From the IMG/VR virus record IMGVR_UViG_3300033172_000005: a stretch of DNA of 41,630 nucleotides; one strand, written 5' to 3'. The position numbers and the translations under genes were made by a program. Positions 1 to 41,630 of the stretch are shown piece after piece. Source of the stretch: a virus. Below the pieces are notes generated by a model that ran no database searches, was not told the origin of the DNA, and saw only the letters and a list, made by a program, of their open reading frames with translations. Position 1 is the first letter of the stretch; every line of letters begins with the position of its first letter.

Positions 1-127
1 TCCATAGGTGGGCGTGATGACAATCCAGTCATCGAAAAGCGTAGGCTGCTGAATCATGACATACCTCGTTTGTGCAGAGGGGCGAAGGCCGGCTTTGGGA
101 CCGGCCCCCGCCTCAGGAGGAGGGAAC
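1..127. repeat. Terminal direct repeat copy 1, identical to 41504..41630. Read as the assembly overlap of a circular molecule.
   Basis: The first 127 bases equal the last 127 bases. The repeat cuts through the 5' end of the ORF that starts at 41560. Confidence 0.9.
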
Positions 128-157: not shown

Positions 158-385
158 CTAACGCGTGCTCTCGTGACCTTCGCTGCCAGACCGTTCCCTG
201 GCGTCAGCCGCTCTGCGCAGAGGCGCAGCGTCCAGACCGAGGCGCGCTTCCTCGCCGGCGAGATAGGTTTTCAGCGCGTAGCGGATAATCTGCGGGCGTG
301 TCGCCGGCCCGTGCTGTGACAGCCTCGTCAGCCGGTCGAACAGCTCCGGCTCTACCCGCACCAGCATCCGTTTCATTTTGCTCAT
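158..385 (-). CDS. Ribbon-helix-helix (Arc/CopG-like) DNA-binding protein. Cro-like candidate and first gene of the leftward early unit.
   Basis: MSKMKRMLVRVEPELFDRLTRLSQHG...PQIIRYALKTYL fits the strand-helix-helix pattern. The ATG at 385 is internal to track ORF 158..439. The gene is divergent from the XRE gene. Confidence 0.7.
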   Translation of the reverse strand: MSKMKRMLVRVEPELFDRLTRLSQHGPATRPQIIRYALKTYLAGEEARLGLDAAPLRRAADARERSGSEGHESTR

Positions 386-429
386 GGGCGTCTTTGTCTT
401 TGAAAAATCGAAAACGTAATCTGACCAAC

Positions 430-458
430 ATTCTAGCACGCAGTACGACGGTTGTCAA
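430..458 (-). promoter_or_regulatory. Sigma70-type promoter TTGACA-N17-TAGAAT with TGn extended -10, driving the RHH gene.
   Basis: On the minus strand, TTGACA is at 458..453, the spacer is 17 nt, TGC precedes the -10, and TAGAAT is at 435..430. The ATG lies about 38 nt downstream of the predicted start. Confidence 0.65.
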
Positions 459-531: not shown

Positions 532-942
532 ATGAATGCCAGGCAAATGGGGTGGAGAATACGCATGTCACGCGACGACCTGGGGCTTACTCAGGAGGAG
601 CTAGCCGCACGCACCGGCATTAGCCGCCCATATCTCACGACTATAGAGAAAGGGCGCGCCGACAACGTCGGCATACGCATCATCGAATCGCTCGCCGACG
701 CCCTCGGCGTCACCGTCAACTACCTGCTGGGCCTCAGCGACAACCCGCTGCCGGATGACGCGCGCACGCTCGCCGAATCCGCCGTCGTCTACGAGGTGGA
801 CAGCATCTCTCAGCGTCGCCGCGTCCAGCGCATGCTCGACCTATTCACCGCCCTCGACGAACCGGGCCAGGAGATGGCCCTGCGCCTGATGGAAACCGTA
901 CGCGATACCTATCAGCCCCGGATCATAGGTAATGACAGTTGA
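532..942 (+). CDS. XRE-family helix-turn-helix repressor (CI-like).
   Basis: LGLTQEELAARTGISRPYLTTIEKGRADNVGIRIIESLADALGVTVNYLLG is a classic HTH_3/XRE pattern. No S24 peptidase domain is present. Confidence 0.85.
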   Translation: MNARQMGWRIRMSRDDLGLTQEELAARTGISRPYLTTIEKGRADNVGIRIIESLADALGVTVNYLLGLSDNPLPDDARTLAESAVVYEVDSISQRRRVQRMLDLFTALDEPGQEMALRLMETVRDTYQPRIIGNDS

Positions 943-962: not shown

Positions 963-995
963 CAAAAATATGCCGGCGCCTATTGCGGCGCCGGC
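963..995 (-). terminator. Intrinsic terminator between the convergent XRE and zinc-ribbon genes.
   Basis: Perfect 9-bp stem: GCCGGCGCC 972..980 pairs with GGCGCCGGC 987..995. On the minus strand it is followed by AUAUUUUUG (963..971). Confidence 0.55.
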
Positions 996-1459: not shown

Positions 1460-1510
1460 CCGCCTAGACCATAGCCGTGTGCGCTAACCTCGTTCCCGTG
1501 TGGTTCGCGG

Positions 1511-1555
1511 TTCACATCCGTGAGGTCGGGGGTTCAAGTCCCTCCTCGCCCACCA
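1511..1555 (+). other. 3' portion of a tRNA gene (variable-arm-like hairpin, T-arm, acceptor 3' strand, CCA). Candidate attP core.
   Basis: GGGGG-TTCAAGT-CCCTC T-arm at 1528..1544, then CTCGCCC-A-CCA at 1545..1555. No matching 5' acceptor strand (GGGCGAG) lies upstream, so this is not a complete tRNA. The integrase gene follows directly. Confidence 0.55.
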
Positions 1556-1563
1556 ACTGCCCA

Positions 1564-1610
1564 GCGCAGACCGCACGTCTAGGCCCCACGCCTAGCCGTG
1601 CGGTCTGCGC
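1564..1610. repeat. 14-bp perfect inverted repeat with a nested CTAGG/CCTAG hairpin, between the tRNA fragment and int.
   Basis: GCGCAGACCGCACG 1564..1577 pairs with CGTGCGGTCTGCGC 1597..1610. No U-tract follows on either strand. Confidence 0.6.
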
Positions 1611-1663
1611 GTCTAGGGCCCGGAATAATTATCCGCATAGTAGAAGGGATAGGTATCACGTCC

Positions 1664-2560
1664 ATGAAACTCTCTCAGGCGCTCACAGGCTACTGGCTCG
1701 CCCGCCGGCGCACACTCAGACCCAACACCCAGCGCGACTACGCACTCCACTACAACCGGCTGCTCAATTATCTGCACGACCCGCTCATCGACGACATCAC
1801 CGCCGCCGACATCCATCGCTATCTCGACTATGTGCAGACGCGCTATAAGCTCGGCCCGAAGACGCTCAGCAACGTCTGGATCGCCCTCTCCGCCCTGTGG
1901 TCGTGGGCCGAGGTCGAGTTAAACATCCCGCACATCATCCGCGGCCAGGTGCCGCGGCCCCGCTATCGCCGCCCGCCCATCCTGCCCTACACCGAGGCGG
2001 ATCTGCGCGCCCTGCTCCTCGCCGCCGAACGCGACGCCGGCCGCCATATGCGCCATGACGCCCTGCGCGACCGCGCCATCCTCCTCACCCTGATCGACTC
2101 GGGCCTGCGCGCCTCGGAGCTGTGCGATCTCACCCTGCGCGACTACGACGCCGAGACCGGACGCCTCAACGTGCGCCACGGCAAAGGCGACAAACAGCGC
2201 GTCGTCTTCGCCGGCGACGGCGTGCGCCGCGCCCTGTGGAAATACCTGGCGACCCGCCCAGAGGCCGCGCCGGGCGACCCGCTCTTCGCCACGCGCAACA
2301 ACACCGCCATCAACCGCACCAACCTGCTGCAACTCATCGTGCGCACCGCCGCCCGCGCCGGCGTCTCCAACGCCAACGTGCACAAGTTCCGCCACACGTT
2401 CGCCATCACATTCCTGCGCAACGGCGGCAACCTGCTCGAGCTGCAGCGCCTGCTCGGCCACGAGCGCATGGACACGCTGCATATCTACGTCCAACTGGCG
2501 CAACAGGACCTCGCCGCGGCCCAGCGCAGCGCCAGCCCGGTCGATCGCTGGCGGCTCTAG
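1664..2560 (+). CDS. int: Tyrosine integrase (XerC/D-like, 298 aa).
   Basis: C-terminal motifs HKFRHTFAITFLRNGG and LLGHERMDTLHIYV give the R..HxxR..Y catalytic pattern. The N-terminal SAM-like region reads ITAADIHRYLDYV. ATG at 1664 (MKLSQAL). Confidence 0.9.
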   Translation: MKLSQALTGYWLARRRTLRPNTQRDYALHYNRLLNYLHDPLIDDITAADIHRYLDYVQTRYKLGPKTLSNVWIALSALWSWAEVELNIPHIIRGQVPRPRYRRPPILPYTEADLRALLLAAERDAGRHMRHDALRDRAILLTLIDSGLRASELCDLTLRDYDAETGRLNVRHGKGDKQRVVFAGDGVRRALWKYLATRPEAAPGDPLFATRNNTAINRTNLLQLIVRTAARAGVSNANVHKFRHTFAITFLRNGGNLLELQRLLGHERMDTLHIYVQLAQQDLAAAQRSASPVDRWRL

Positions 2561-22826: not shown

Positions 22827-23687
22827 TTACTCCAACTCAGCCAGTTGCAGGCCCCGCGCCCTGCGCCGCGCCCGCTCCATCTTCAACCGATCCGCCTCTG
22901 CCTCATCCCCATCCGTCTCAGACCACCCCGGCCACGTCCGCATAGCCGCCGGCAGGCTCACCCGATACCGCTCCTCCAAGGCCGCCAGCAGTTTCGGCGT
23001 CAACTGTCCCTCCGCCGCCATCCGCTCCGCCTTCAGAATCGCCGCCCCGGGCGTCGCCCCGTCGTATACCGCCGACACCTCCGCCAGCCGCGCGTCCCGG
23101 ATCTCCACCGTCGCCAGTTGGGTCCGCACTACGCCGTCCTCTTCCCGCTCATACTCCAGCCCCGCAAAATGCGGGCATTCAAAACTCAGATAATTGCGGC
23201 CGCAGATGTCGCACACCCAGCGCCCGCCATAGAACCCCACCGACACGTCGTGCACGATCCCGCTGCGCACGCCGGCGATGAAATCGTTTGTGTTCACGCC
23301 CGCCAGCCGCAGCCCCGCCAGCGTGAAAAAATCGGCCTCGACGACCGTTTCCTCGCCGCTCTCTCGCACCTCGCCCGTCAGCGACCGGCCCAGCGGCATC
23401 TCGTGCCAGCGATGCGAGTTCTGGAACGACACGCCCTCCGCCGCCGCCCGCGCGAAATTCGCCAGCGTGCTCGCCGCCATGTGCGTGTAGTACGCATCCA
23501 GCCGCGACGAGCTGATCTCCGCCCGCCAGAAAAACGGGTCCGACTCGTCGAACACCGCCGGGTCATACGCGCTCTGCTCCCGCGCCATCTGCAACAGCGC
23601 CTCCGCCCGTTCGCCCCGCACGGCCGCCGCCCGCGCCGCATGCGCATGCACCACCCGCTCAGTCTCCATCTGACTATTGCTCCTCAT
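22827..23687 (-). CDS. Prohead maturation protease (HK97/S78-like) with a Cys-rich insertion.
   Basis: FQNSHRWHEMPLG and DVSVGFYGG are His- and Ser-containing motifs. Lies between portal and capsid. An alternative start ATG at 23669 (METERV) sits behind an AGGAG SD. Confidence 0.7.
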   Translation of the reverse strand: MRSNSQMETERVVHAHAARAAAVRGERAEALLQMAREQSAYDPAVFDESDPFFWRAEISSSRLDAYYTHMAASTLANFARAAAEGVSFQNSHRWHEMPLGRSLTGEVRESGEETVVEADFFTLAGLRLAGVNTNDFIAGVRSGIVHDVSVGFYGGRWVCDICGRNYLSFECPHFAGLEYEREEDGVVRTQLATVEIRDARLAEVSAVYDGATPGAAILKAERMAAEGQLTPKLLAALEERYRVSLPAAMRTWPGWSETDGDEAEADRLKMERARRRARGLQLAELE

Positions 23688-24891
23688 TCGCCGGCTCCTC
23701 GCCCGCCGCCGTCATGTTCATCGGCGTCAGGTACTCGTCCCCGCCCTCGATCTCGTCCATGTTCTCCAGCTTCCGGATATCGTTGGCGCTCATCCAGCCC
23801 CACTGCCGCGCCACCGCATACGCCTGATAGCGGCTCATCGTGTCCCCGCGCAGCAGACCCTCGACCAAATGTTCGGCGTAAAATCGTTTCTGCTCATTGG
23901 CCGTCAGCAGGTCCCGCTGGATCGCCTGCTCGAACCGCACCAGCCACGGCCGCACCGTGTCCGTTACGAACTCGATGGCCTGGTGCTCGATGTTGGAAAA
24001 TGTGGCCTTGTCCAGCAGCCCGATTTTGTGCGGCGGCATGCGGTAGATGCGGGCGATCTCCTCCGCCTGAAACTGACGCGTCTGCAGGAACTGCGCCTCT
24101 TCCGGCGGCACGCTCAGCGTCTCCACCGTCATCCCCTCCTCGAGGATGCGGATGCGATGCGCCTGGCTCAGCCCGCCGTGCTCTTCCTGCCACGACCCTT
24201 TCAGCCGGTCGTACGCCTTGTCGCTCAGCGCGCCCGGGTGCTGCAGCACGATCCCCGGCCTGGCCCCGTTGCCGAAAAAACGCGCGCCGTATTCCTCCGT
24301 CGCCAGCGCCAGACCCACCGCCTGCATCGCCGTGCGCACGGGCGAATAGCCCACCAGCCCGTCGCCGCTCAGCGTGCGCACATGGTGCACCTGTTCCCGG
24401 CGAAGCTTCACCGTGCTGCCGTCGCCCGGCGCGTACTCATACTCCACCTGCCCGCGCACCCGCCGCACCGCCATCCGGTCCGGCCGCAGCGGCCACAGCT
24501 CCGCCGTCTGCCCGCTGCCGTTGCGCACGATCTCTGCGTACGCATTGCCCCACAGGCACAGGCTCGCCGTCATCATCTCGCGGAACTCCATCGCCGTCTG
24601 TTCCGGGTTCGGCTGCGTGTGCAGAATGCGGTACAGCGGATGATTCTCCGCCCGCGCCTTCCCCCGCGTCTGGCGCTGATAGACGATCAGCGGCAGGCTG
24701 GCGACCGTCTCGCTCAGCACGCGCACGCACGCGTACACCGCCGGCAGCGCCAGCGCGCCCTCTTCCGTCACCGTCACCCCGGCGTATGTGGAGGCGCTCT
24801 GCAGGCCGAACAGCCGCGCCCAGTCCGCATCCTGGCTCGGATGCGTCCGCCTGCTCACCTCGCCCAACAATCTCGCCGTAAAACCGGTCAT
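23674..24891 (-). CDS. Portal protein, HK97 family.
   Basis: LPAVYACVRVLSETVASLPLIVYQR...NHPLYRILHTQPNPEQTAMEFREMM...WGNAYAEI matches the HK97-type portal pattern. The ATG at 24891 (MTGFTARL) is chosen because the longer TTG start at 25008 would overlap the promoter and terminator. Confidence 0.88.
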   Translation of the reverse strand: MTGFTARLLGEVSRRTHPSQDADWARLFGLQSASTYAGVTVTEEGALALPAVYACVRVLSETVASLPLIVYQRQTRGKARAENHPLYRILHTQPNPEQTAMEFREMMTASLCLWGNAYAEIVRNGSGQTAELWPLRPDRMAVRRVRGQVEYEYAPGDGSTVKLRREQVHHVRTLSGDGLVGYSPVRTAMQAVGLALATEEYGARFFGNGARPGIVLQHPGALSDKAYDRLKGSWQEEHGGLSQAHRIRILEEGMTVETLSVPPEEAQFLQTRQFQAEEIARIYRMPPHKIGLLDKATFSNIEHQAIEFVTDTVRPWLVRFEQAIQRDLLTANEQKRFYAEHLVEGLLRGDTMSRYQAYAVARQWGWMSANDIRKLENMDEIEGGDEYLTPMNMTAAGEEPANEEQ

Positions 24892-24915
24892 CCCGTCGTC
24901 GCTCCGCACAGCGCC

Positions 24916-24956
24916 AAAACAAAAAAGCGCACCCGGTCCTCGCGGACCGTGTGCGC
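24916..24956 (-). terminator. Strong intrinsic terminator in the 5' leader of the portal operon.
   Basis: Minus-strand RNA reads GCGCACACGGUCC-GCGA-GGACCGGGUGCGC, a 13-bp stem with one A.G mismatch, followed by UUUUUUGUUUU (24926..24916). It lies 25 nt upstream of the portal ATG. Confidence 0.75.
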
Positions 24957-25001
24957 TCGTGGCGTCCTCTATAGTTGTCTGCGCATCCCCTGCGCAAACC
25001 T
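24916..25001 (-). ncRNA. Predicted ~85-nt terminated leader RNA (6S-like) from the late promoter.
   Basis: Spans the inferred start about 7 nt after TATAGT to the terminator U-tract. Also contains the hairpin UGCGCA-GGGGA-UGCGCA. Confidence 0.3.
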
Positions 25002-25007
25002 GACTCA

Positions 25008-25036
25008 ACTATACGTCGGTGGCGTTAAACTGTCAA
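25008..25036 (-). promoter_or_regulatory. Near-consensus sigma70 promoter TTGACA-N17-TATAGT directed at the portal/structural operon.
   Basis: On the minus strand, TTGACA is at 25036..25031, the spacer is exactly 17 nt, and TATAGT is at 25013..25008. Confidence 0.7.
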
Positions 25037-25076
25037 CCGATTAGAACAAAACAGAACATAACCTGTCAGTTTGACG

Positions 25077-25116
25077 AATTCCCCAGAATTCCCCAAATTG
25101 CCTATTGCAATTCCCC
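25077..25116 (+). repeat. Three AATTCCCC boxes (25077, 25087, 25109) between and over the divergent promoters. Operator candidates.
   Basis: GAATTCCCCA occurs twice in tandem with a 10-bp period. A third copy overlaps the -35 of the plus-strand promoter. Confidence 0.5.
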
Positions 25117-25133
25117 CGAATTTGTGATTTAAT
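25105..25133 (+). promoter_or_regulatory. Sigma70-type promoter TTGCAA-N17-TTTAAT (TGn extended -10) for the plus-strand cassette.
   Basis: TTGCAA at 25105..25110, a 17-nt spacer ending in TGA, TTTAAT at 25128..25133. The leader to the first ATG is about 175 nt. Confidence 0.55.
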
Positions 25134-25313
25134 GGAGGTAGGAAAAACGATACGGACTCGGACGAACCGAGACAGGGCCTAGCAATAGGCGAACCGGGGA
25201 GGACCCGCCAGACCGCCAGAACAACGGAGGTTGATAGACCAGGAGTCAGCGGCAACCGAGCCGCTCTGATGATTGGCCGAATCCGAGGCCGAAACTCCAG
25301 AAGGGAGAATACG

Positions 25314-25616
25314 ATGAACAAGGCAAGCTATTTCGTCCGCGTGGACACCTATTGGGCTTGGGCGCCCGACTATTTCGTCGGGCCGTTCGCCAGTCGAGAC
25401 GCCGCACAGGCGGCGATCGACGAGGCGCTGAGCGCCAGCGGCGGGCTGGCGCAGATGGCGTACAACCTCTCGCCGGATGTCTGGTCCGGCGTGCGCATCC
25501 ACGGCATTCTGTCACGCACCGCTGCACGGCGCAGCGGCATGCGTGATGACGACCAGATCAGCCGCATTCCTCTGAATGCCGACGATCTGGCCCGCCAGAT
25601 TGAGGAAATTTTCTAA
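25314..25616 (+). CDS. Hypothetical protein (100 aa), first gene of the opposite-strand cassette.
   Basis: ATG at 25314 behind a GAAGGGAGAA SD. Well-composed sequence (MNKASYFVRVDTYWAWAPDYF...). Confidence 0.65.
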   Translation: MNKASYFVRVDTYWAWAPDYFVGPFASRDAAQAAIDEALSASGGLAQMAYNLSPDVWSGVRIHGILSRTAARRSGMRDDDQISRIPLNADDLARQIEEIF

Positions 25617-25668
25617 TCGCACCCCACGCCTGCCGGTGGGCGTAATCACCGGCAGAAAGGGAATTACG

Positions 25669-25938
25669 ATGAAACTCACAACCGCGGAGGTTTTCGCCCT
25701 CGCTCGCCTCGTTAACGAGGCGAGCATAGGGTTGGACGGCACGAAAGTGCACGCTGCTGTCCACATTGCGGATAGTGCCGAAGCGCGGCACTATCCGCAC
25801 GTCGCCGAGGCAAGAGATCGCCTCGGCGATGAATGGGTGCTCATTGTCTGGTCGGAGGGCGAGCCGACGAAGGTAACGCCCTCCGACCAGACAATCGGGG
25901 CGGCCACAATGGCCGCCCTTATGGGGGCCGACCTATGA
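25669..25938 (+). CDS. Hypothetical protein (89 aa).
   Basis: ATG at 25669 behind a GAAAGGGAA SD. Its initiation region is nearly identical to that of the preceding gene. Confidence 0.6.
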   Translation: MKLTTAEVFALARLVNEASIGLDGTKVHAAVHIADSAEARHYPHVAEARDRLGDEWVLIVWSEGEPTKVTPSDQTIGAATMAALMGADL

Positions 25939-26612
25939 CGTACTACGTAGAGGCAGAGATGCTGGGTGACAGCGCCACCAACGCCGCCGCCCGGCGCATG
26001 GTAGAGTTGCTGCAAGAGCGCGGTGTTGACGCCGCGCTCGGAAGCCCGCTGCAATATGACCACGACCCGGACGAATGCCCCGACGCCGTCTGGGAGCAGT
26101 GCCTGGACGTTATCGGTATCGAGGCGACGGTACGCGCGTTCACCGTCGCCTTCATCCAAAGCCGGGGATGGCAGTTAGGCCAGACCATCCCCGGCCTAGA
26201 CGCCGCCATCGTCGAAGCCGCGCCGCCCCCGGCGCTCGCCGGCGACCTGCAGCCGCAAGATTGGCTGCAAATGGCGCTGTACGGCGCGGGCCTCGTGGAC
26301 GCCGACCCCGGCGAGATGCGCGACGTGTGCCAGAGCCTCGCGGAGTGGCTATTCGCCGTGCCCGGTGAATCGGCCTACGCCATCCCGGACGCATGGACTG
26401 CCAGCCCGATGGGTGCGCTGTGGTGGGCGGCGCTGGTGCGCGCCGAGGGCGACGCGCTCGTCACCGTGGCCGAGGCCGCGCGTCTGGCGGGCGTCAGCGT
26501 CAAGACGCTCAGCAAGCGCATCGACCGCGGCGCGCTGCGCGCCTACGTCGATCCGTCCGCCCCCGCGCGTCAGGGGCGGCGCCTAGTGCGGCGCAGCGAC
26601 GTTGCGCCGTAG
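25935..26612 (+). CDS. Protein with a C-terminal excisionase/MerR-type HTH (225 aa). Candidate Xis/RDF or late regulator.
   Basis: The C-terminus LVTVAEAARLAGVSVKTLSKRIDRGALRAY...RRLVRRSDV fits the excisionase-family HTH pattern. ATGA overlap with the previous gene. Confidence 0.65.
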   Translation: MTYYVEAEMLGDSATNAAARRMVELLQERGVDAALGSPLQYDHDPDECPDAVWEQCLDVIGIEATVRAFTVAFIQSRGWQLGQTIPGLDAAIVEAAPPPALAGDLQPQDWLQMALYGAGLVDADPGEMRDVCQSLAEWLFAVPGESAYAIPDAWTASPMGALWWAALVRAEGDALVTVAEAARLAGVSVKTLSKRIDRGALRAYVDPSAPARQGRRLVRRSDVAP

Positions 26613-26630
26613 CCGCCCGCGACTCCTAGC

Positions 26631-26656
26631 GCCCCAGGCATCGCGTCTGGGGCTTT
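26631..26656 (+). terminator. Hairpin plus short T-run at the convergence of the plus-strand cassette and the leftward unit.
   Basis: GCCCCAG 26631..26637 pairs with CTGGGGC 26647..26653, then TTT. The U-tract is weak. Confidence 0.35.
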
Positions 26657-26658
26657 CC

Positions 26659-26772
26659 TCATCTTCGCCTCAACCACGCCCGGACCTGCACCCACGCCGC
26701 CCAGGCCGCCAACCCGACCAGCAGGAAGACGACCCCTCTGTCCGCATCCCACTGCGCCGCCAAATTGTCCAT
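26659..26772 (-). CDS. Micro membrane protein (37 aa), not in the ORF track.
   Basis: MDNLAAQWDADRGVVFLLVGLAAWAAWVQVRAWLRRR: one transmembrane helix with a basic tail. Translated by hand. Confidence 0.4.
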   Translation of the reverse strand: MDNLAAQWDADRGVVFLLVGLAAWAAWVQVRAWLRRR

Positions 26773-26773
26773 A

Positions 26774-26932
26774 TCACTCCCCGTCCGGCCCCAGCAACCG
26801 CACGATGTCCAACTCCACCACATGCCGCCCGCGCCGCAGCTCCAACACCCGCGTCTCCGGGTAAAACCGCCCCATCAACGCCCCCATATGGTCCCGCACA
26901 TCCACCGCCGCCGTCCCGCCGGTCCACGTCAT
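26774..26932 (-). CDS. Small soluble protein (52 aa).
   Basis: MTWTGGTAAVDVRDHMGALMGRFYPETRVLELRRGRHVVELDIVRLLGPDGE. Its ATG overlaps the upstream TGA (TGATG). Confidence 0.4.
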   Translation of the reverse strand: MTWTGGTAAVDVRDHMGALMGRFYPETRVLELRRGRHVVELDIVRLLGPDGE

Positions 26933-27102
26933 CACCGCCTGGCGATTCGTTCCCTCCGCCCCTTCGCCCATGCAGTCCCCATCCCCGCCGTAAACAACAC
27001 GACGCCCGCAAACAGCGCCGTCGCCTCCCAGCCGAACCAGCCGTACAACGCCGCGCTCACCGCCAACAGCCCCACCACGATCAGCCAATCCCCGCCGTCC
27101 AT
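26932..27102 (-). CDS. Micro membrane protein (56 aa, two transmembrane helices), not in the ORF track.
   Basis: MDGGDWLIVVGLLAVSAALYGWFGWEATALFAGVVLFTAGMGTAWAKGRRERIARR. A GGGGGCGAG SD follows the GT2 stop. The overlapping track ORF frame is G/R/V-rich junk. Confidence 0.5.
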   Translation of the reverse strand: MDGGDWLIVVGLLAVSAALYGWFGWEATALFAGVVLFTAGMGTAWAKGRRERIARR

Positions 27103-27111
27103 CTCGCCCCC

Positions 27112-27798
27112 CTACGGCCTATGCTCCACCACAACCAGCGGATCCGCCCAAATCCCGAACCCCCGCGCCCGCGCCATCCGGCACAGACCCCGGTCCACCT
27201 CCGCCGCCGTATACCGGCAGCCCGCCCGCAGCACCTCCGCCCGCATCAACAGCGTTCCGCCCACCGTCTGCATCTTCACCAGGTCCCGCCCATAGCGCCG
27301 CCCCAGGTCGAACCGCCCGAACGCCGGCACGCCGCGCCCGTCTTCCGTGCTGAACGCCCAGATGTCGTAGAACACATTGCCCATAAACACGAACGGCGCA
27401 ACCAGGTCCGCCCCCGGCCGCTCCAGATCATCTGCCAGCCGCTGCAGCATATCCGCCTCATACACGATGTCGCTCGGCAGCATCAGCACATAATCCGACC
27501 AGCCCAGGTCGACCGCATCCATGCCCGCATTATACACCGTCGCCAGCGTCGCAAACCGCTCCGCATTCACCACGCTCCCATAATGCGGCGCGCCCGTATC
27601 GCAGCGCACCACCCGCCAGCGCGGATCCCAACACGCCTGCTCTTCCAGCCGCGCCCGCGTCCCGTCCGCGCTGTCGCCCTCCACCGCAACCACGCGCAGC
27701 GCCTCCCACTCCCACGCCAGCCCGTCCACCCGGTCCGCAAACGCCTCGACCCGCCCCTCGCAATCGCGGAACGGCGCAACAATCGTCACATTCCCCAT
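27112..27798 (-). CDS. Family-2-like (GT-A fold) glycosyltransferase, 228 aa.
   Basis: VTIVAPFRDCE...VVAVEGDSADGTRARL resembles the GT2 N-terminal signature (xDxSxDGT). LPSD acidic motif. No transmembrane segment. Confidence 0.7.
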   Translation of the reverse strand: MGNVTIVAPFRDCEGRVEAFADRVDGLAWEWEALRVVAVEGDSADGTRARLEEQACWDPRWRVVRCDTGAPHYGSVVNAERFATLATVYNAGMDAVDLGWSDYVLMLPSDIVYEADMLQRLADDLERPGADLVAPFVFMGNVFYDIWAFSTEDGRGVPAFGRFDLGRRYGRDLVKMQTVGGTLLMRAEVLRAGCRYTAAEVDRGLCRMARARGFGIWADPLVVVEHRP

Positions 27799-27799
27799 A

Positions 27800-27874
27800 T
27801 CACTCTCCCAAACACGCTAGCCACACGGCCAAAACCATCACGATCATCGCCCACATCGCCTGGTCGAACGTCAT
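27800..27874 (-). CDS. Micro hydrophobic peptide (24 aa), not in the ORF track.
   Basis: MTFDQAMWAMIVMVLAVWLACLGE. Its ATG directly abuts the acyltransferase TAG. Its stop lies 1 nt before the GT2 ATG. Confidence 0.35.
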   Translation of the reverse strand: MTFDQAMWAMIVMVLAVWLACLGE

Positions 27875-28357
27875 CTAGTCCCCCCATCTGATCAGCCCGC
27901 TGGAAGTCACCCTCCCCACGAAACGGGGTTGCGGCGTGAGTTCCCGCGCCGGATTCCCCGCCACGATGGCGAACGCCGGCACATCGCGCGTCACCACCGC
28001 CCCCGCGCCCACCAGCGCCCCGCGCCCGATGCGCACCGGCAGCAGCACCGCCCCGCTGCCGATGCTCGCCCCATCCTCGATCACCGTCCGCAAATGCCCC
28101 GGCGCGCCTTCCGTCGAGGGCCGCTTGTCGTTCGTCGTCATCACCCCATGCCCGATGAACACCCCGTTCCCCACGCGCACCCCCGCGCACAGAAACGTGT
28201 GGCTCTCGATCTTGCAGCCCTCGCCGATCTCCACATCCTCCTGGATCTCCACGAACGGCCCCACGAACGTCCCCGCCCCGATGAAACACCGGTACAGGTT
28301 CACCAGGTCAGGGAAGGGGATCCGCACCCCCTCCCCCAGCACGCAGTTCTCAATCAT
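27875..28357 (-). CDS. Hexapeptide-repeat (left-handed beta-helix) acyl/acetyltransferase, 160 aa.
   Basis: Repeated [LIV]-G-x4 turns: IGEGCKIESHTFLCAGVRVGNGVFIGHGV...IEDGASIGSGAVLLPVRIGRGALVGAGAVVTRDVPAFAIVAGNPAR. ATGA overlap with GT4. Confidence 0.8.
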   Translation of the reverse strand: MIENCVLGEGVRIPFPDLVNLYRCFIGAGTFVGPFVEIQEDVEIGEGCKIESHTFLCAGVRVGNGVFIGHGVMTTNDKRPSTEGAPGHLRTVIEDGASIGSGAVLLPVRIGRGALVGAGAVVTRDVPAFAIVAGNPARELTPQPRFVGRVTSSGLIRWGD

Positions 28358-29556
28358 CCCTGATCCGCCAACTCCGCAATCACCGGCTGCCAGTAATCCT
28401 CCACCACCCTGTCCCAGCCGTACTCCTCGTGCGCCCAGCGGCTCGCCTCCCGCCGCAGCGTCATCGGCCAACGCCCGCCCTGCAGCGCCCAATCCTCATA
28501 CAGCCGCTCCAGCGCCGCCTGCATCCCCCGCCAGTCCGGCCAACTCCACCAACATCCCAGATGCGACCAGCACAGATCCGCCGGCGCAACCCGCTCGCCC
28601 CACATCACCAGCTCGCTCATCGACGCGAAATCCGTCGTCACCACCGGCGTGCCGCACGCCTGCGCCTCCAGGATCGGCAGGCCGAACCCCTCGCTCTTCG
28701 ACCCCGCAATCAGCGCATCCGCGCAGTTATACAGGGCCACCATCACGTTCTCCGGGTAACCCATCCAGTACTGGCGCTGGTCGGCAAACACCACCCGATC
28801 CAAAATGCCCAGCTCCCGCGCCAGCTCCGTCAGGTCATAACCGCCGAACCGCGTCCCCGCCTCCGTGTGCACATACAGCCGCGCCTGCGGCTTGCCCGCA
28901 GCGAAGGCCGCCCACGCCCGCAAATTGCCTTGAAAATGCTTGCGGTCGTCGCTGCCCTTATTCGCCGCCACCATCAGCGTCAAATGCTCCACGCCGGGGA
29001 ACCACTCCTCCCGCCAGTGCGCCCGCTCCGCCTCGTCCAGCACGCGGAACGTTTTCGGCTCCACCCCGTGCGGCACATACAGCGCCCGCTCTACGCCCGC
29101 CTTGTGCAGCTCCTCCAGCCCCCAGCGGCTGTACACCAACGGCCTGTGCGCCGTATCCAGCGCCGCCCGCACCCGCGCCGCCACCGGCGCCCCGTCGACG
29201 GGGAACCACGGCAGCCACTTCGCCGGCGCAACCCGCTCCCCCACCCCGTGTTGCGTCCACACGTCGATCAGCGTAATCACCGCGTCCGCCTCGAAATCCC
29301 GCGCGTACGCCCCGATCATATCCGTCCCGTACGGCTGCGCCCCTGCCGGATAAACCCTGAACCCGTCCACCATCATCGAACCGCCGGCAAGTCCGAACCA
29401 GGCAAACATCGCCACATTCTCACGGCCGCCCACCTCCGGCAGCGCCGCCAGCCGCGGCAGCAAATGTTTGCCCTGCGTTCCGTATCCGGTCGACACCCAA
29501 AAACCATTTGAGGAGTACAGGATCCTCAGCCCCTTCCGCCCTTCTCCGTTCGCCAT
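28354..29556 (-). CDS. GT-B fold, family-4-like glycosyltransferase, 400 aa.
   Basis: E-x7-E motif in SKSEGFGLPILEAQACGTPVVTTD. ATG at 29556 (MANGEGRKGLRILY) behind a GAGGA SD. Confidence 0.8.
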   Translation of the reverse strand: MANGEGRKGLRILYSSNGFWVSTGYGTQGKHLLPRLAALPEVGGRENVAMFAWFGLAGGSMMVDGFRVYPAGAQPYGTDMIGAYARDFEADAVITLIDVWTQHGVGERVAPAKWLPWFPVDGAPVAARVRAALDTAHRPLVYSRWGLEELHKAGVERALYVPHGVEPKTFRVLDEAERAHWREEWFPGVEHLTLMVAANKGSDDRKHFQGNLRAWAAFAAGKPQARLYVHTEAGTRFGGYDLTELARELGILDRVVFADQRQYWMGYPENVMVALYNCADALIAGSKSEGFGLPILEAQACGTPVVTTDFASMSELVMWGERVAPADLCWSHLGCWWSWPDWRGMQAALERLYEDWALQGGRWPMTLRREASRWAHEEYGWDRVVEDYWQPVIAELADQG

Positions 29557-29578
29557 TCGTTGATCCTCGTCGTTGTGC

Positions 29579-30508
29579 CTATCTGCTGAATTGCCAAAGG
29601 GCTGAAACTCGCCCCATATCCCACGCAGCCGCCATCTGCCGGCGCAGCTTCTCCTCAACCTGCTCCGCGCCTGCTTCCGAATACCATTGCAGAGCTGCCC
29701 CGTCCCGATCTGTCAACACATCCAGCAAAATGCCGTAGCGCAGCGCCGCTTCGATGTACGGTTCCGGCGTATACCATTCGTTATTTCCGCTGTTGTGCGT
29801 TACGTGCGGACGCACGTTCCGCTCTGGCGCTTCCGCATATATGTCATCTATTGTTTCGTAATCTTCAGGGTATCCGCCCCACACCTCAGCCTGCTCAGCC
29901 GATGTTGGTTCCGGCCCAGAAGCCCACGCCGGCAGCGGTTGCGGTTCGGGCTGGGACAGCGGTACAACCGTCCGCTTACCGATGTTCTCCGTGTTGATCG
30001 TGTAGGTTGTGCCGTTGCGGGTGGCTTTGATCTTATCTGGGCGTTGCATCTTGCCCACTGAGCAGGATGCAAACTCGGCAAACCAACGGGAAAGAGTCTG
30101 CCGCGGGATCATTGTGTGGCGGGCAATTTCGCTCTGACCCTTGCCAAACCATTCAGGATCAAAATAGATGCGTTGGGCGATCTTCTTCAGATCGGCACTG
30201 TTACGCCGCAGCCCATAATCTCGATTCGCACCCAACGCCCACCACTGAGCATCGCGCTTTGTCCCATGGTGTAGTTCGGCGGGAAAGACCATCAATCCGG
30301 CATAATCTCGCGCCGCTGTAACGCGATGAAAACCATCCGCCAACCAGTAAGTAGAGCCGTCGAAGAACACCACCACGGGCGGAAACTGTGCGCCGTCTTT
30401 CATGGCCGCGGCATACTCGCCAACAACGATCATGTCGAGCTGATAACGCGCTTGTATATCTTCATCAAGCACAATGGATCTGAGTTCTATTTCTTTCATT
30501 TCGTTCAT
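29579..30508 (-). CDS. ParB-like nuclease domain plus HTH protein, with a truncated Dam-type methyltransferase start at the C-terminus.
   Basis: FFDGSTYWLADGFHRVTAA is the ParB/Srx DGxHR motif. GQSEIARHTMIPRQTLSRW is an HTH. NNEWYTPEPYIEAA resembles an MTase N-terminus, but no (D/N)PP(Y/F/W) follows. Lower GC by eye. Confidence 0.7.
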   Translation of the reverse strand: MNEMKEIELRSIVLDEDIQARYQLDMIVVGEYAAAMKDGAQFPPVVVFFDGSTYWLADGFHRVTAARDYAGLMVFPAELHHGTKRDAQWWALGANRDYGLRRNSADLKKIAQRIYFDPEWFGKGQSEIARHTMIPRQTLSRWFAEFASCSVGKMQRPDKIKATRNGTTYTINTENIGKRTVVPLSQPEPQPLPAWASGPEPTSAEQAEVWGGYPEDYETIDDIYAEAPERNVRPHVTHNSGNNEWYTPEPYIEAALRYGILLDVLTDRDGAALQWYSEAGAEQVEEKLRRQMAAAWDMGRVSALWQFSR

Positions 30509-35819: not shown

Positions 35820-36182
35820 CTAGGGATTGTCCCCGCGATTCGCCCCGCCCCTCCCCCAGACCTCATCAGCCGTTTTCTCGCCGTGATGTCGTTTGCATAA
35901 TGACTGGAGGTTGGCCCAGGCGTCCGTGCCGCCGCGCACCCTCGGCACGATGTGGTCGACGTCCGTCGCCGGCTCGCCGCAGACCGCGCAGAGTGGATGC
36001 GCACGCAGATACATGAGTCGCAACTTGCGCCACCGGCTGCCGTACCCGCGCGCCGCGCTACTGCCGCGCTGACGGTCGAACGCACGCTCTCGCTCACGCG
36101 CACATCGCTCGCAGTAACCGCCGCGCACCGCCAGCCCTGCGCACCCTGGCGTCCTACATGGTCGTCTCGCCTTCGTCGGCAT
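35820..36182 (-). CDS. HNH endonuclease (packaging-associated type, upstream of terS).
   Basis: CRTPGC...YCERC...HPLCAVCGEPATDVDHIVPRVRGGTDAWANLQSLCKRHH. ATG at 36182 (MPTKARRPC). Confidence 0.85.
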   Translation of the reverse strand: MPTKARRPCRTPGCAGLAVRGGYCERCARERERAFDRQRGSSAARGYGSRWRKLRLMYLRAHPLCAVCGEPATDVDHIVPRVRGGTDAWANLQSLCKRHHGEKTADEVWGRGGANRGDNP

Positions 36183-36255
36183 GCCATCGCCTCCATCCGC
36201 CGTCGAAGAGCGTCGCCAACTCGCCCGCCGGCGACGCCCTTCGCTGGCCCCCAGT

Positions 36256-36456
36256 TCACGCCGCCTGTCGATCGTTCGCAAACAGCGGCAAGTCGCACAC
36301 CTCTCGCGCTCGCGTATCCTGCGGCGCATGCCGGCGCAACCAGGCCCCCTCGCATTCAGCGCACGCCATTAGCGACCGCGGAATGTGGTTGGCCTGAATC
36401 ACGAAGATGCTCTTCAGCCTGTCCGTCACTCTCCCGCACACCTGGCATTTCCCCAT
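36256..36456 (-). CDS. Possible small zinc-ribbon protein (66 aa).
   Basis: MGKCQVCGRV...ACAECEG has two CxxC pairs. It overlaps the 3' end of the replication gene by 100 nt, so it is uncertain. Confidence 0.35.
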   Translation of the reverse strand: MGKCQVCGRVTDRLKSIFVIQANHIPRSLMACAECEGAWLRRHAPQDTRAREVCDLPLFANDRQAA

Positions 36457-39466: not shown

Positions 39467-40423
39467 TCATGAAGAACCCAACGCCGCCCAAACCGCCTCG
39501 CCCTGCTCGCTCGCCGGGTCATCCAACGAGCGCACATAGATGTCCGTCGTCTGCAGGCTGCCGTGATGCAGCATCGCCCGCAGCCCATCCAGGTCGTGCG
39601 TCTGCCGGTAGTAGAGATGCGCAAACGTGTGGCGCAGATCGTGCAGCCGGTACAGCTCCCACCGCTCCACGCCCGCAGCCCGCAGCGACTGGCGAAAAAT
39701 GCGCCGCGCGTTGCTCTCCGAGATATGCGCCCGTCGACGTTTCAGCCCTCCGGGCGCGCCCAGCAGGTTGCCCGTCCCGTGGTCCTGCAATGGCGCAAAT
39801 ACGAAATCGCCGTTCGGCGCCAGCGCCCGATAATGCTCCAGCGCCTCCCATGCCCGCGCCGGCAGCGGAACCCAGCCGCTTTTGCCGCCTTTGCCCTGCC
39901 ACGCCCACATCCACCGCCCCGGCTCGCTGCGATGCGGCCGCAGCGCCGCCCAGCTCATGCGCACCACCTCGGCCGCACGCGCCCCGGTCAGAAAATAGAC
40001 CAGCAGCAGCGCCTGATTGCGCGCCCCGCGCTGCGAACCCGCCCGGCTCGCCAGATAATCGAACAGCAGCCGCAGATCCGCATCGGGCAACACGTTGGCG
40101 TGGCCGTAGGGCTGCACCCGCTGCCGGCGCACCTGCAACAGCGGATTCTCCGCCGGCCCCAGCGCCGCAGACTGCCGCATCGCGAACTCGCACAGCGAAG
40201 ACGCCGCCGCCAGCCGGCAATTCACCGACGCCGCCGCCAGCCCCTTCGCCCGCAGCGCCCGCTGCCAACTGCGCGCCTCCGCGCCCGACGCCTCGCCCGG
40301 CGATACGCCCGCCTGCTCCAGATGCGCCAGCCATTCCGCCGACGCACGCGCATAGGCGCGGCGCGTGTGTTCGCTCGCCGTCGCCTGCAGCCACTGGTCG
40401 CGCAGCCGCAGCCACGCGCTCAT
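39467..40423 (-). CDS. Second tyrosine recombinase (XerC/D-like, 318 aa).
   Basis: LVYFLTGARAAEV (Arg I), LHDLRHTFAHLYY (HxxR) and LHHGSLQTTDIYV (catalytic Tyr). The ATG at 40423 overlaps the stop of the upstream endonuclease gene (ATGA). Confidence 0.85.
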   Translation of the reverse strand: MSAWLRLRDQWLQATASEHTRRAYARASAEWLAHLEQAGVSPGEASGAEARSWQRALRAKGLAAASVNCRLAAASSLCEFAMRQSAALGPAENPLLQVRRQRVQPYGHANVLPDADLRLLFDYLASRAGSQRGARNQALLLVYFLTGARAAEVVRMSWAALRPHRSEPGRWMWAWQGKGGKSGWVPLPARAWEALEHYRALAPNGDFVFAPLQDHGTGNLLGAPGGLKRRRAHISESNARRIFRQSLRAAGVERWELYRLHDLRHTFAHLYYRQTHDLDGLRAMLHHGSLQTTDIYVRSLDDPASEQGEAVWAALGSS

Positions 40424-41223
40424 ACCTCGTGCGTCCGCCACGTCTGCTCCCGCGTCTCGGCTTGAGAATACGACAAAGGCAAATGACGCCATGTCTTACC
40501 ACGAACAATTGCGGAGATTGCGCCCTGCGAGACGTTAAATTGCTGGCCCAATGCGTATGTAGAATGCCCTGCTGAGGCATACAAGCGGCGGATGTCCATC
40601 ACCTGTTCTGCGGTCAGCTTTGCAGAACCGTTCATTTCACCGGCAGTCGTCCCTTTTGGTCGCTCATAATCTCGAGGCAATAAATGCTTCCAGACTCTTC
40701 CTGCAAGAATGGCGTCAATCGTGCAGTAACTCACTCCATACTCGTCTGCAAGGGCTTGCCTGCGTTCGCCTGCCTGTGTCCTCCGATGGATGTCCTCAAC
40801 ATTCTCCCGGCTCAGCACGGCGAAATGATGGGCTTCTCCATGGACGAGCCGTCCCTTGTCTCTGGCATGGTGAGAATTCTCCTCTGCCGTCACCCATTCC
40901 AGATTCTCTGCTCTGTTGTCCGATCTGATGCTGTTCTTATGATTGATCTGATGCTTGGCGGATGGGCGCTTGCCGAGGAATGCCGGTGCAACAATACGAT
41001 GAACGGCCTCCGATTTTCGCTTTCCGATACTGGTCGCATTGAGCGACACATACGCGTAACCGTCGATATATGCCGGCGTCAACACCTTGGCCGGTACGCC
41101 GCGCTCCCGGTTATCGTCGCACCTCACGCGCCGATATACGGAGCGCACCTGTCCACGATTGGACACTTCGTAGAATCCTTCGTAACCGACGACCGGCAGC
41201 CACACTTCCCTAGTTGTTCTCAT
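40420..41223 (-). CDS. NUMOD4/HNH_3-type homing endonuclease with C-terminal HTH repeats.
   Basis: WLPVVGYEGFYEVSNRGQVRS is NUMOD4-like. HRIVAPAFLG...INHKNSIRSDNRAENLEWVT is HNH_3-like. Two similar HTH segments follow (YGVSYCTIDAILAGRVWKHL and FNVSQGAISAIVRGKTWRHL). Lower GC by eye. Confidence 0.8.
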   Translation of the reverse strand: MRTTREVWLPVVGYEGFYEVSNRGQVRSVYRRVRCDDNRERGVPAKVLTPAYIDGYAYVSLNATSIGKRKSEAVHRIVAPAFLGKRPSAKHQINHKNSIRSDNRAENLEWVTAEENSHHARDKGRLVHGEAHHFAVLSRENVEDIHRRTQAGERRQALADEYGVSYCTIDAILAGRVWKHLLPRDYERPKGTTAGEMNGSAKLTAEQVMDIRRLYASAGHSTYALGQQFNVSQGAISAIVRGKTWRHLPLSYSQAETREQTWRTHEV

Positions 41224-41560
41224 AGTGTTGCTCCCGCGTCTCAAAAAAGTTTTCGAGTTCCGGCTCTTGTTGCATTAACAATCGTGAATAAAAAGCTCGA
41301 TACGAATTATCGAGCTTGAAATCGCTAGTGGGATCGCTGGTTTGCATTGCATGCTGCCAGCGTAATGTCTCGAAGAGGCCGTTGATGCTGTAGCGCATTC
41401 TGCCCCGCCGGCGTATGGCGAGCGCCATATCGCGAAGTCGGGCATATACTGCGGGGTTCGATTTATGAAACGCCTCGAAGCGTTCGGCAATCGTCATGTC
41501 ACGTCCATAGGTGGGCGTGATGACAATCCAGTCATCGAAAAGCGTAGGCTGCTGAATCAT
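41210..41560 (-). CDS. Hypothetical conserved-looking phage protein (116 aa). Second gene of the leftward early unit across the circular junction.
   Basis: ATG at 41560 (equivalent to position 57) behind a GAGG SD. MIQQPTLFDDW...NSYRAFYSRLLMQQEPELENFFETRE. Confidence 0.65.
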   Translation of the reverse strand: MIQQPTLFDDWIVITPTYGRDMTIAERFEAFHKSNPAVYARLRDMALAIRRRGRMRYSINGLFETLRWQHAMQTSDPTSDFKLDNSYRAFYSRLLMQQEPELENFFETREQHYENN

Positions 41561-41630
41561 GACATACCTCGTTTGTGCAGAGGGGCGAAGGCCGGCTTTG
41601 GGACCGGCCCCCGCCTCAGGAGGAGGGAAC
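41504..41630. repeat. Terminal direct repeat copy 2 (identical to 1..127).
   Basis: Exact identity to the first 127 bases, read directly from the sequence. Confidence 0.9.

Follow-up and report, generated by a model that had tools for sequence, protein, structure and literature searches.

The timing of late-gene expression is understood mechanistically in only a few model phages, and antitermination switches outside the lambdoid group are rarely recognised because the factors involved share no sequence similarity. One published account (PMC7547250) describes the late promoter PR' of Stx phages as always active but terminated in lysogens, with a short RNA product that has a function of its own. 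Q-like control of a capsid operon has been reported outside the lambdoid phages for BrrG, which was recognised only by its structure (bioRxiv 10.1101/2024.11.20.624540), and some phage proteins as small as about 7 kDa make polymerase pass intrinsic terminators (PMC6624301, PMC3351154). The present analysis concerns a locus of this general design in a metagenomic phage genome (IMG/VR record IMGVR_UViG_3300033172_000005; the whole stretch of 41,630 nt is hereafter the window), in which a near-consensus promoter, a short leader and a strong intrinsic terminator directly precede the portal gene on the minus strand. The feature is real, non-random and conserved with the portal gene, and similar cassettes recur in distant phages, where they include the gene of a small protein that we call sp65. 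We give a probability of roughly 0.5 to the reading that the feature acts as a lambda-like gate on the late genes, with read-through enabled by a phage factor.

The resemblance to the lambda Q/PR'/qut/tR' arrangement lies in a near-consensus promoter that appears to need no activator and stands directly before the late genes, as in a Q-type module, in a short RNA ending at a strong terminator, and in downstream genes reached by read-through only; in relatives of the window, a small gene of regulator size also lies immediately upstream and is inherited with the site. The original prediction, made from the window alone, proposed PR'-tR'-like control of the structural operon without a recognisable Q homologue. 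In line with this, scans of about 45 open reading frames (ORFs) of the window against Pfam and PHROGs revealed no Q-family protein of the lambda, 82 or 21 type, and the sp65 model has no significant match to a solved structure. Nor is there a -10-like pause element in +1..+25, positions which instead form a GC-rich 5' hairpin; the sole -10-like hexamer of the leader, TATAGA near +31..+36, is CCAGAG at the equivalent site in two relatives (contigs L150 and L151; contigs are cited by such labels) and so is not conserved. Further differences are that the relatives' leader is a conserved structured RNA, sometimes with a transfer RNA (tRNA), and that the gate stands before portal or scaffold/capsid genes rather than lysis genes. 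With neither a Q protein nor a pause element found, the locus is not filed here as a member of the Q family, so that this part of the lambda comparison falls, while its logic of promoter, short RNA and obligatory read-through holds and is supported by comparative conservation.

Other described systems share some traits with the locus. As in N/nut and HK022 put, the nascent RNA carries, ahead of the terminator, a hairpin whose loop (GGGGA) is rich in purines, together with a linear motif. However, no arginine-rich N-like protein accompanies them and the motif has no boxA match on the transcribed strand (a boxA-like reading fits the non-transcribed strand only and was rejected), put consists of two stem-loops and belongs to early promoters, and the GGGGGA of the relatives stands in an internal loop and not in a GNRA-like pentaloop. 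Rfam yielded no match to the minus-strand leader at the gathering threshold or at E <= 10, and none to five relatives at E <= 1. Xp10 p7 and P23-45 gp39 resemble sp65 in size (about 7 kDa), in a beta-rich predicted fold and in belonging to phages that use the host polymerase for late genes, but they act generally on polymerase without a linked cis element, whereas sp65 is tied to one site and has no significant structural match to either. In the Bartonella gene transfer agent, the capsid and packaging operon is likewise gated by a promoter, a leader and termination, and the factor, BrrG, is encoded elsewhere in the element; its Q21-like structure and its need for a -10-like element have no counterpart here. 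The type III system ToxIN shares the order of promoter, small structured RNA, terminator and a downstream gene needing read-through, but the present locus has no tandem RNA repeat, its downstream genes encode portal or capsid proteins and not a toxin, and its linked protein gene lies upstream.

The promoter, leader and terminator before the portal gene

The promoter, TTGACA-17-TATAGT, lies at 25036..25008 on the minus strand (-35 at 25036..25031, -10 at 25013..25008), with transcription predicted to start near 25001, and matches the sigma-70 consensus at 11/12 positions. Only two sites of at least 11/12 occur on either strand of the 41.6-kb window, against a mean of 0.03, and never two, in 100 dinucleotide shuffles. 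The other one, at 458..430, is in the likely immunity region, where an early promoter is expected. An inverted repeat, CGTCAAACTGACA / TGACAGTTTAACG (25023..25076), has one arm over the -35 hexamer and the other about 41 nt upstream, with AT-rich sequence between; it is conserved in L134-L138 within the portal-linked block, and GC content there drops to 0.47-0.52 from the 66% of the genome. The repeat is possibly a regulator site or an UP-like region. An operator common with the early promoter was considered and rejected, because AAACTGACAGG, GGGGAATTC and the leader motif have only chance-level matches elsewhere in the genome. Three direct repeats of GGGGAATT(C/G) at 25076..25116, 40-80 nt upstream of the -35 hexamer, are found in the window variant only.

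The predicted intrinsic terminator (24956..24916, minus strand) consists of a GC-rich stem of 13 positions with 5' arm GCGCACACGGTCC (24956..24944), a GCGA loop (24943..24940) and 3' arm GGACCGGGTGCGC (24939..24927), followed by a U-tract of T6 G T4, that is U6GU4 in the RNA (24926..24916). Twelve of the 13 positions are paired, with one A/G mismatch, and the fold of the 45 nt ahead of the T-run has about -26.8 kcal/mol. It is by far the strongest terminator of the late strand, on which other terminator-like matches are at chance level. Both the promoter and this hairpin had been placed correctly in the original prediction; the closeness of the terminator to the portal gene was right as well, but the position given there, 24892, was one base off, since the ATG is at 24891..24889, 24 nt past the last T. 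Those 24 nt hold a ribosome-binding site only. A late promoter downstream of the terminator had been named as an observation that would speak against the prediction, and no sigma-70-like site of at least 9/12 was found on the minus strand from the terminator to the end of the late genes. With no promoter after the terminator and only a ribosome-binding site in the short gap, all transcription of the portal and late genes must cross the terminator. The portal gene (23674..24891, minus strand; Pfam Phage_portal, E = 8e-121) is the first behind the gate and is followed on the same strand, by gene order, by protease, capsid, connector, tail and later genes to about 2557, a late block of head and tail genes of roughly 22 kb.

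From about 25001 to the terminator a transcript of roughly 82-86 nt is predicted. The 111-nt leader folds with -51.8 kcal/mol (z = -4.9 against shuffles) into a 5' hairpin and then the terminator. The hairpin, GUUUGCGCA-GGGGA-UGCGCAGAC (24977..24999, minus strand), has 9 bp, begins about 3 nt after the predicted start, and looks like a minimal form of the relatives' 5' stem with its invariant CGGGGGA. Between the two structures lies a single-stranded motif, ACAACUAUAGAGGACGCC (24961..24978, minus strand), which occurs once in the window; its resemblance to the relatives' ACAACUAGAGCGC..GACGCC was judged by eye only, and the terminator stem that follows it differs. No alternative antiterminator pairing of useful strength was seen in the leader. 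Attenuation by a leader peptide was rejected because relatives do not conserve the 5-codon ORF that runs from an AUG in the hairpin loop to a UAG in the motif. No stop codon interrupts the portal reading frame across the whole leader, back to 25008 (24889..25008, minus strand), and in L136-L138 an insertion of 1 nt (CAACT-ATAG to CAATTAATAG) brings the AUG of the hairpin loop in frame with it; this in-frame AUG is probably due to chance, and if translated would extend the portal protein N-terminally.

The window portal belongs to a cluster at 90% identity that is seen on several contigs, five of which differ from the window. In these close relatives structural-gene DNA is 95-97% identical and divergence at third codon positions of the portal gene is 5-7%. 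Alignment of the upstream regions showed almost no variation between a point about 60 nt upstream of the -35 hexamer and the portal ATG. Upstream of this segment, L137 and L138 have sequence unrelated to that of the window and L134 carries other divergent genes, and several assemblies break precisely at the edge region upstream of the portal gene, independent ones (contigs among L128, L130-L133, L137 and L138) at 24939, 25049, 25225 and 25787. An almost invariant block beside swapped upstream sequence places the promoter, leader and terminator on the portal side of a recombination hot spot and not within the inserted cassette. Four relatives keep both hexamers and the 17-nt spacing, and their spacer differs at 4 clustered positions (ACCGACG in the window, TCTGGCA in the relatives). 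The terminator is identical in L134-L138. Between the predicted start and the ATG there are no changes in L134 and 2-4 in the others, where the synonymous rate would lead one to expect 6-8, in a sample that is small and not independent. Megablast with 3 kb around the site found no near-identical phage in GenBank, and the exact terminator sequence had no match in IMG/VR.

Two further elements of the original prediction were not supported. Read-through from upstream was thought to be blocked by a convergent plus-strand cassette, but no terminator-like fold was found in 26600..26790 (z = -0.46). Proteins of that divergent cassette were also proposed as the antitermination factor; these genes are lineage-specific insertions, absent from other phages with the same layout, and two of them, p100 and p89, are replaced in L134, which makes their products unlikely factors and was the ground for rejecting them as a general explanation. 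An ORF upstream of TerS (35820..36329), considered as a hidden Q, is an HNH endonuclease by motif.

A recurring cassette and the protein sp65

Most of the phages and prophages whose portal is related (35-63% identity) have TerL directly beside the portal gene, across a gap of 0-250 nt that contains no terminator. In some of the closest portal relatives the gap is longer, and a very strong terminator stands 14-70 nt ahead of the portal gene, in some cases with a small membrane-protein gene between the two. The order in these distant cassettes is the sp65 gene, a sigma-70 promoter, a 5' stem, sometimes a tRNA, the ACAACUAGAGCGC motif, a strong terminator and the head genes. The promoter is usually TTGAnn-17-TAnnnT with a TG-extended -10, and members other than the window share ATGTGCTA ahead of the -10 hexamer. 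The long 5' stem begins a few nucleotides from the predicted start and carries an invariant (U)CGGGGGA in an internal loop; in its outer part, 8 of the 16 predicted pairs show compensatory changes among five sequences. The linear motif ACAACUAGAGCGC has the core AGAGCG, and the terminator has the lower stem GACGCCAGAUA, then U5-U8, with perfect stems of 13-19 bp. The 5' stem and 3' end are retained in leaders whose length varies between about 67 and 350 nt, and some members have a tRNA with CAU anticodon and two further conserved hairpins between promoter and terminator. The tRNA(CAU) scores 59-64 bits in L141 (3251..3322, minus strand), L150 (2851..2922), L151, L156 (5133..5204) and L157; the L141 copy, at 58.9 bits with Rfam, was missed by ARAGORN.

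With the window lineage included, the cassette was counted in 14 distinct phages with two unrelated head-gene types. Four contexts (L146, L156-158, L160) have Terminase_6, an SPP1-type portal and Mu_F, with the cassette between Mu_F and the scaffold/capsid genes. This is an independent setting, which suggests that the linkage with sp65 is not simply inherited synteny. Members of the sp65 family have 62-87 residues and are encoded immediately upstream of the promoter in relatives, so closely in L156 that the promoter spacer contains the sp65 stop codon. The profile of the family, matched against all ORFs of 160 sequences, found members in cassette carriers alone. A database search returned 32 clusters, all metagenomic, all of small proteins, and none named or with a Pfam domain; genomic contexts were examined for five of them, and the cassette was present in all five. 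A metagenome scan with the profile gave one match, a false positive from a fragment of a larger unrelated protein. Profile searches of the family against Pfam, PHROGs and PDB sequences gave no match. AlphaFold predicts with confidence a core of four strands, a short helix and a fifth strand.

In the window, sp65 (26971..26774, minus strand) is a 65-residue protein encoded by the last gene of the co-directional upstream block, and is a candidate trans-acting factor with weak homology to the family. A profile built without the window sequence or the near-identical L134 copy picked out only the ORF at 26774..27118 among 652 window ORFs (E = 7.8e-4). An inserted divergent cassette of 1.7 kb separates it from the promoter, and appears to have entered between the two. 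Since the window leader gives no significant RNA alignment, its membership of the family is judged from position, architecture, short motifs and the weak sp65 match; the window thus looks like a diverged copy of the recurring cassette, although homology of its RNA to the family is without statistical support.

The proposed gate and its alternatives

Read from sequence, promoter activity, terminator efficiency and the existence, identity and target of a factor could fit together as follows. The strong promoter just upstream of the portal gene would be used by host RNA polymerase without an activator, and the RNA of about 85 nt would end at the intrinsic terminator, so that the gate would be closed by default and the portal, head and tail genes would be transcribed only by polymerases that read through. 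In lytic growth a phage factor from the long upstream unit of early and packaging genes would open it. Q genes and their sites are adjacent and jointly mobile, and sp65 is named as the candidate because its own adjacency and joint mobility are similar: in relatives its gene directly adjoins the promoter, and the two move with the structured leader and the terminator as a single mobile cassette. That sp65 is the factor permitting read-through is nonetheless a tentative identification, for which adjacency and joint mobility are the grounds. Its position near the end of the upstream unit would build in a delay, and its target might be the leader RNA, the DNA or the polymerase. A bolder and equally doubtful extension is that sp65 and its linked leader RNA represent an undescribed, self-contained and horizontally mobile class of late-gene switch, in which host polymerase would be allowed past one specific terminator before head genes by a newly recognised fold of about 60 residues, with a mechanism unrelated to Q, N, put, p7 or gp39.

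Several observations weigh against such a gate or against the part given to sp65. A covariance model of the relatives' 3' module aligned at full length with window positions 24918..24984 but scored only 10.2 bits, with E of about 1. The window sp65 itself scores only 14.3 bits, is divergent, and is without the C-terminal strand of the family; Foldseek comparison of the sp65 model with PDB and BFVD gave nothing significant (E > 1), and the family is mostly acidic to neutral (isoelectric point 5-6) rather than basic. Five contigs (L049, L048, L055, L054 and L064) have a terminator before the portal gene and no detectable full sp65, and the co-occurrence of sp65 with the cassette could come partly from shared ancestry. 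The nearest cellular portal matches, at 57% identity, are in metagenome-assembled genomes of Anaerolineae.

The bona fide tRNA(CAU) within the unit of L141, L150, L151 and L156/157 also counts against the gate, and suggests that the RNA itself may be the product. The locus would then be a stand-alone gene for a small RNA or tRNA, with late genes served by ordinary leak-through and upstream transcription and no dedicated antiterminator; the RNA might act with sp65 as a ribonucleoprotein, or as a regulatory small RNA like the PR'-derived StxS. We consider this possible yet on balance unlikely, in either form. It would agree with leader length varying over about 67-350 nt around a constant 5' stem and 3' end, with covarying structure and invariant loop motifs typical of functional RNA, and with the short PR' RNA of Stx phages, which is a functional small RNA (PMC7547250). 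It accounts less well for terminators that are unusually strong (13-19 bp, U6-U8) and are followed by an essential gene at 14-70 nt but by no promoter; constitutive leak into the late operon would be costly for a temperate phage, and the window has a CI-like repressor and integrases; and the window version lacks a tRNA, its RNA reaching the terminator after only about 45 nt. As the same account has PR' always active but terminated in lysogens and its short RNA functional, the gate and an RNA product could both hold.

The hairpin and linear motif found between promoter and terminator in all members could also act by themselves, as in HK022 put, with the GGGGA stem and the motif rendering polymerase terminator-resistant and with timing set by repression or activation of the promoter and not by an antiterminator protein. 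The inverted repeat at the -35 hexamer, conserved in close relatives, could then be an operator, and the four clustered spacer changes could mark a change of operator. We regard this as quite improbable, given that no Rfam family matches and no operator motif is shared with the early promoter, that so near-consensus a promoter would need a dedicated repressor and none was found, that the strictly linked sp65 gene would be left without a role, and that a terminator always overridden would not stay so strong. A last alternative is an ordinary boundary, in which the terminator insulates a structural operon with a plain late promoter from the inserted cassettes and the upstream unit, and the hairpin is inefficient in the host or serves there as a stabiliser or processing site of messenger RNA. 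Insertions do concentrate in the gap between TerL and the portal gene in this clade (glycosyltransferases, HNH, small genes and the divergent cassette), the genome uses another strong terminator at 995..972 as an insulator, and terminator efficiency may be different in the true host. But an insulator is expected before a promoter, whereas here the promoter is upstream of the terminator in every member, and the order, short spacing and sp65 are conserved across two unrelated head-gene types, so that a mere boundary also seems improbable.

Under the preferred reading of a gate opened by a phage factor, the locus would be a compact module of one promoter, a leader of about 85 nt, one terminator and one candidate protein of 65 residues, recurring in uncultured phages of two head-gene types. 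Should sp65 turn out to be the factor, it would represent a class of terminator-specific antiterminators not described before and could serve as a portable switch. Should the RNA turn out to be the product, it would found a family of phage non-coding RNAs with tRNA genes inside them. In both cases, the gaps between terminase and portal genes of metagenomic phages ought not to be annotated as empty.

Genome layout and the insertion hot spot

A direct repeat of 127 bp stands at both ends of the window (1..127 and 41504..41630), and a separate, independent assembly reproduces the same sequence in rotated form, which together show a complete circular metagenomic phage genome and not a prophage flanked by host DNA. 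The circle is about 41.5 kb with 66% GC, and nearly all genes are on the minus strand. The second 11/12 promoter, TTGACA-17-TAGAAT with a TG extension (430..458, minus strand), faces a CI-like helix-turn-helix repressor gene (532..942, plus strand), and its transcription would run through a small CopG-like gene (158..439, minus strand) and then across the circular junction. A terminator with 9 bp, all GC (995..972, minus strand), would stop minus-strand transcripts entering this region, which is likely the immunity region. After the CopG-like gene the same unit has HNH/NUMOD4, a tyrosine recombinase, a replication initiator, an HNH nuclease, TerS, three unknown genes and TerL. About 6.7 kb 3' of TerL are absent from most relatives, and encode a 146-residue ORF, HNH, a ParB-like protein, a GT1 glycosyltransferase, a hexapeptide acyltransferase, GT2, a 56-residue membrane protein and a 65-residue protein. 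Then come the plus-strand cassette (25314..26612), the promoter-terminator feature, portal, capsid, connector and tail genes, and more genes to about 2557.

The phage looks temperate, since it encodes a CI-like repressor together with a Cro-like partner and has two tyrosine recombinases. The two recombinase genes in one 41.5-kb genome are at 1598..2560 (plus strand), adjoining a phage-encoded tRNA-Val (1477..1555), and at 39467..40492 (minus strand), within the early unit. The glycosyltransferase region between TerL and the portal gene (27112..29658, minus strand) comprises the GT1, hexapeptide acyltransferase and GT2 genes; GT1 homologues are at the equivalent site in L047 (3157..4821) and L049 (1..993), and GT1 genes also follow the head-completion genes in SPP1-type cassette carriers (ends of L158 and L160). 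These genes may serve glycosylation of the virion or of the host surface.

The divergent inserted cassette (25240..26612, plus strand) lies outside the gate and separates sp65 from the promoter in the window lineage. It encodes p100 (25314..25616), p89 (25669..25938) and an HTH_17 protein (25935..26612), a DNA binder of the MerR/excisionase type, all on the plus strand. Approximately 25080..25935 is a swap hot spot, as three different small genes take the place of p100 and p89 in L134, in which only the HTH_17 gene of the cassette is kept (82% DNA identity), and in L137 and L138 the cassette is replaced by unrelated sequence of low GC. Within p89 there is a perfect 11-bp palindromic hairpin, CGGATAGTGCC GCGCTTC GGCACTATCCG (25769..25797), where contigs L131 and L132 end; its stem resembles the relatives' terminator stem CAGATAG..CTATCTG and is the top match of our model R1 (E = 0.26).

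The 5' untranslated region of the divergent cassette contains a hammerhead type III-like ribozyme (25240..25300, plus strand), 13 nt before the p100 start codon, with copies in L134 (4124..4185, minus strand) and L136 (477..539, minus strand). Prophage hammerheads flanking genes have been described, one of them 13 nt ahead of a start codon (Perreault et al. 2011, PMC3088659). The core (CUGANGA, GAAA, GUC triplet and stems I, II and III) is complete in the window, L134 and L136, and stem II is GGCC/GGCC in L134 and GCCG/CGGC in L136, so that pairing is kept; ahead of stem II, the window copy carries an inserted UU. Neither Rfam score reaches the gathering threshold of 48.5 bits, the window having 30.7 (E = 1.1e-4, 481 nt searched) and L136 42.3 (E = 5e-6, 45 kb). 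Upstream of the ribozyme is a plus-strand tandem, CCGCCAGA CCGCCAGA (25205..25220), common to L134 and L136, and the same untranslated region has an 11-nt long-range complement, TTGCCTATTGC / GCAATAGGCGAA.

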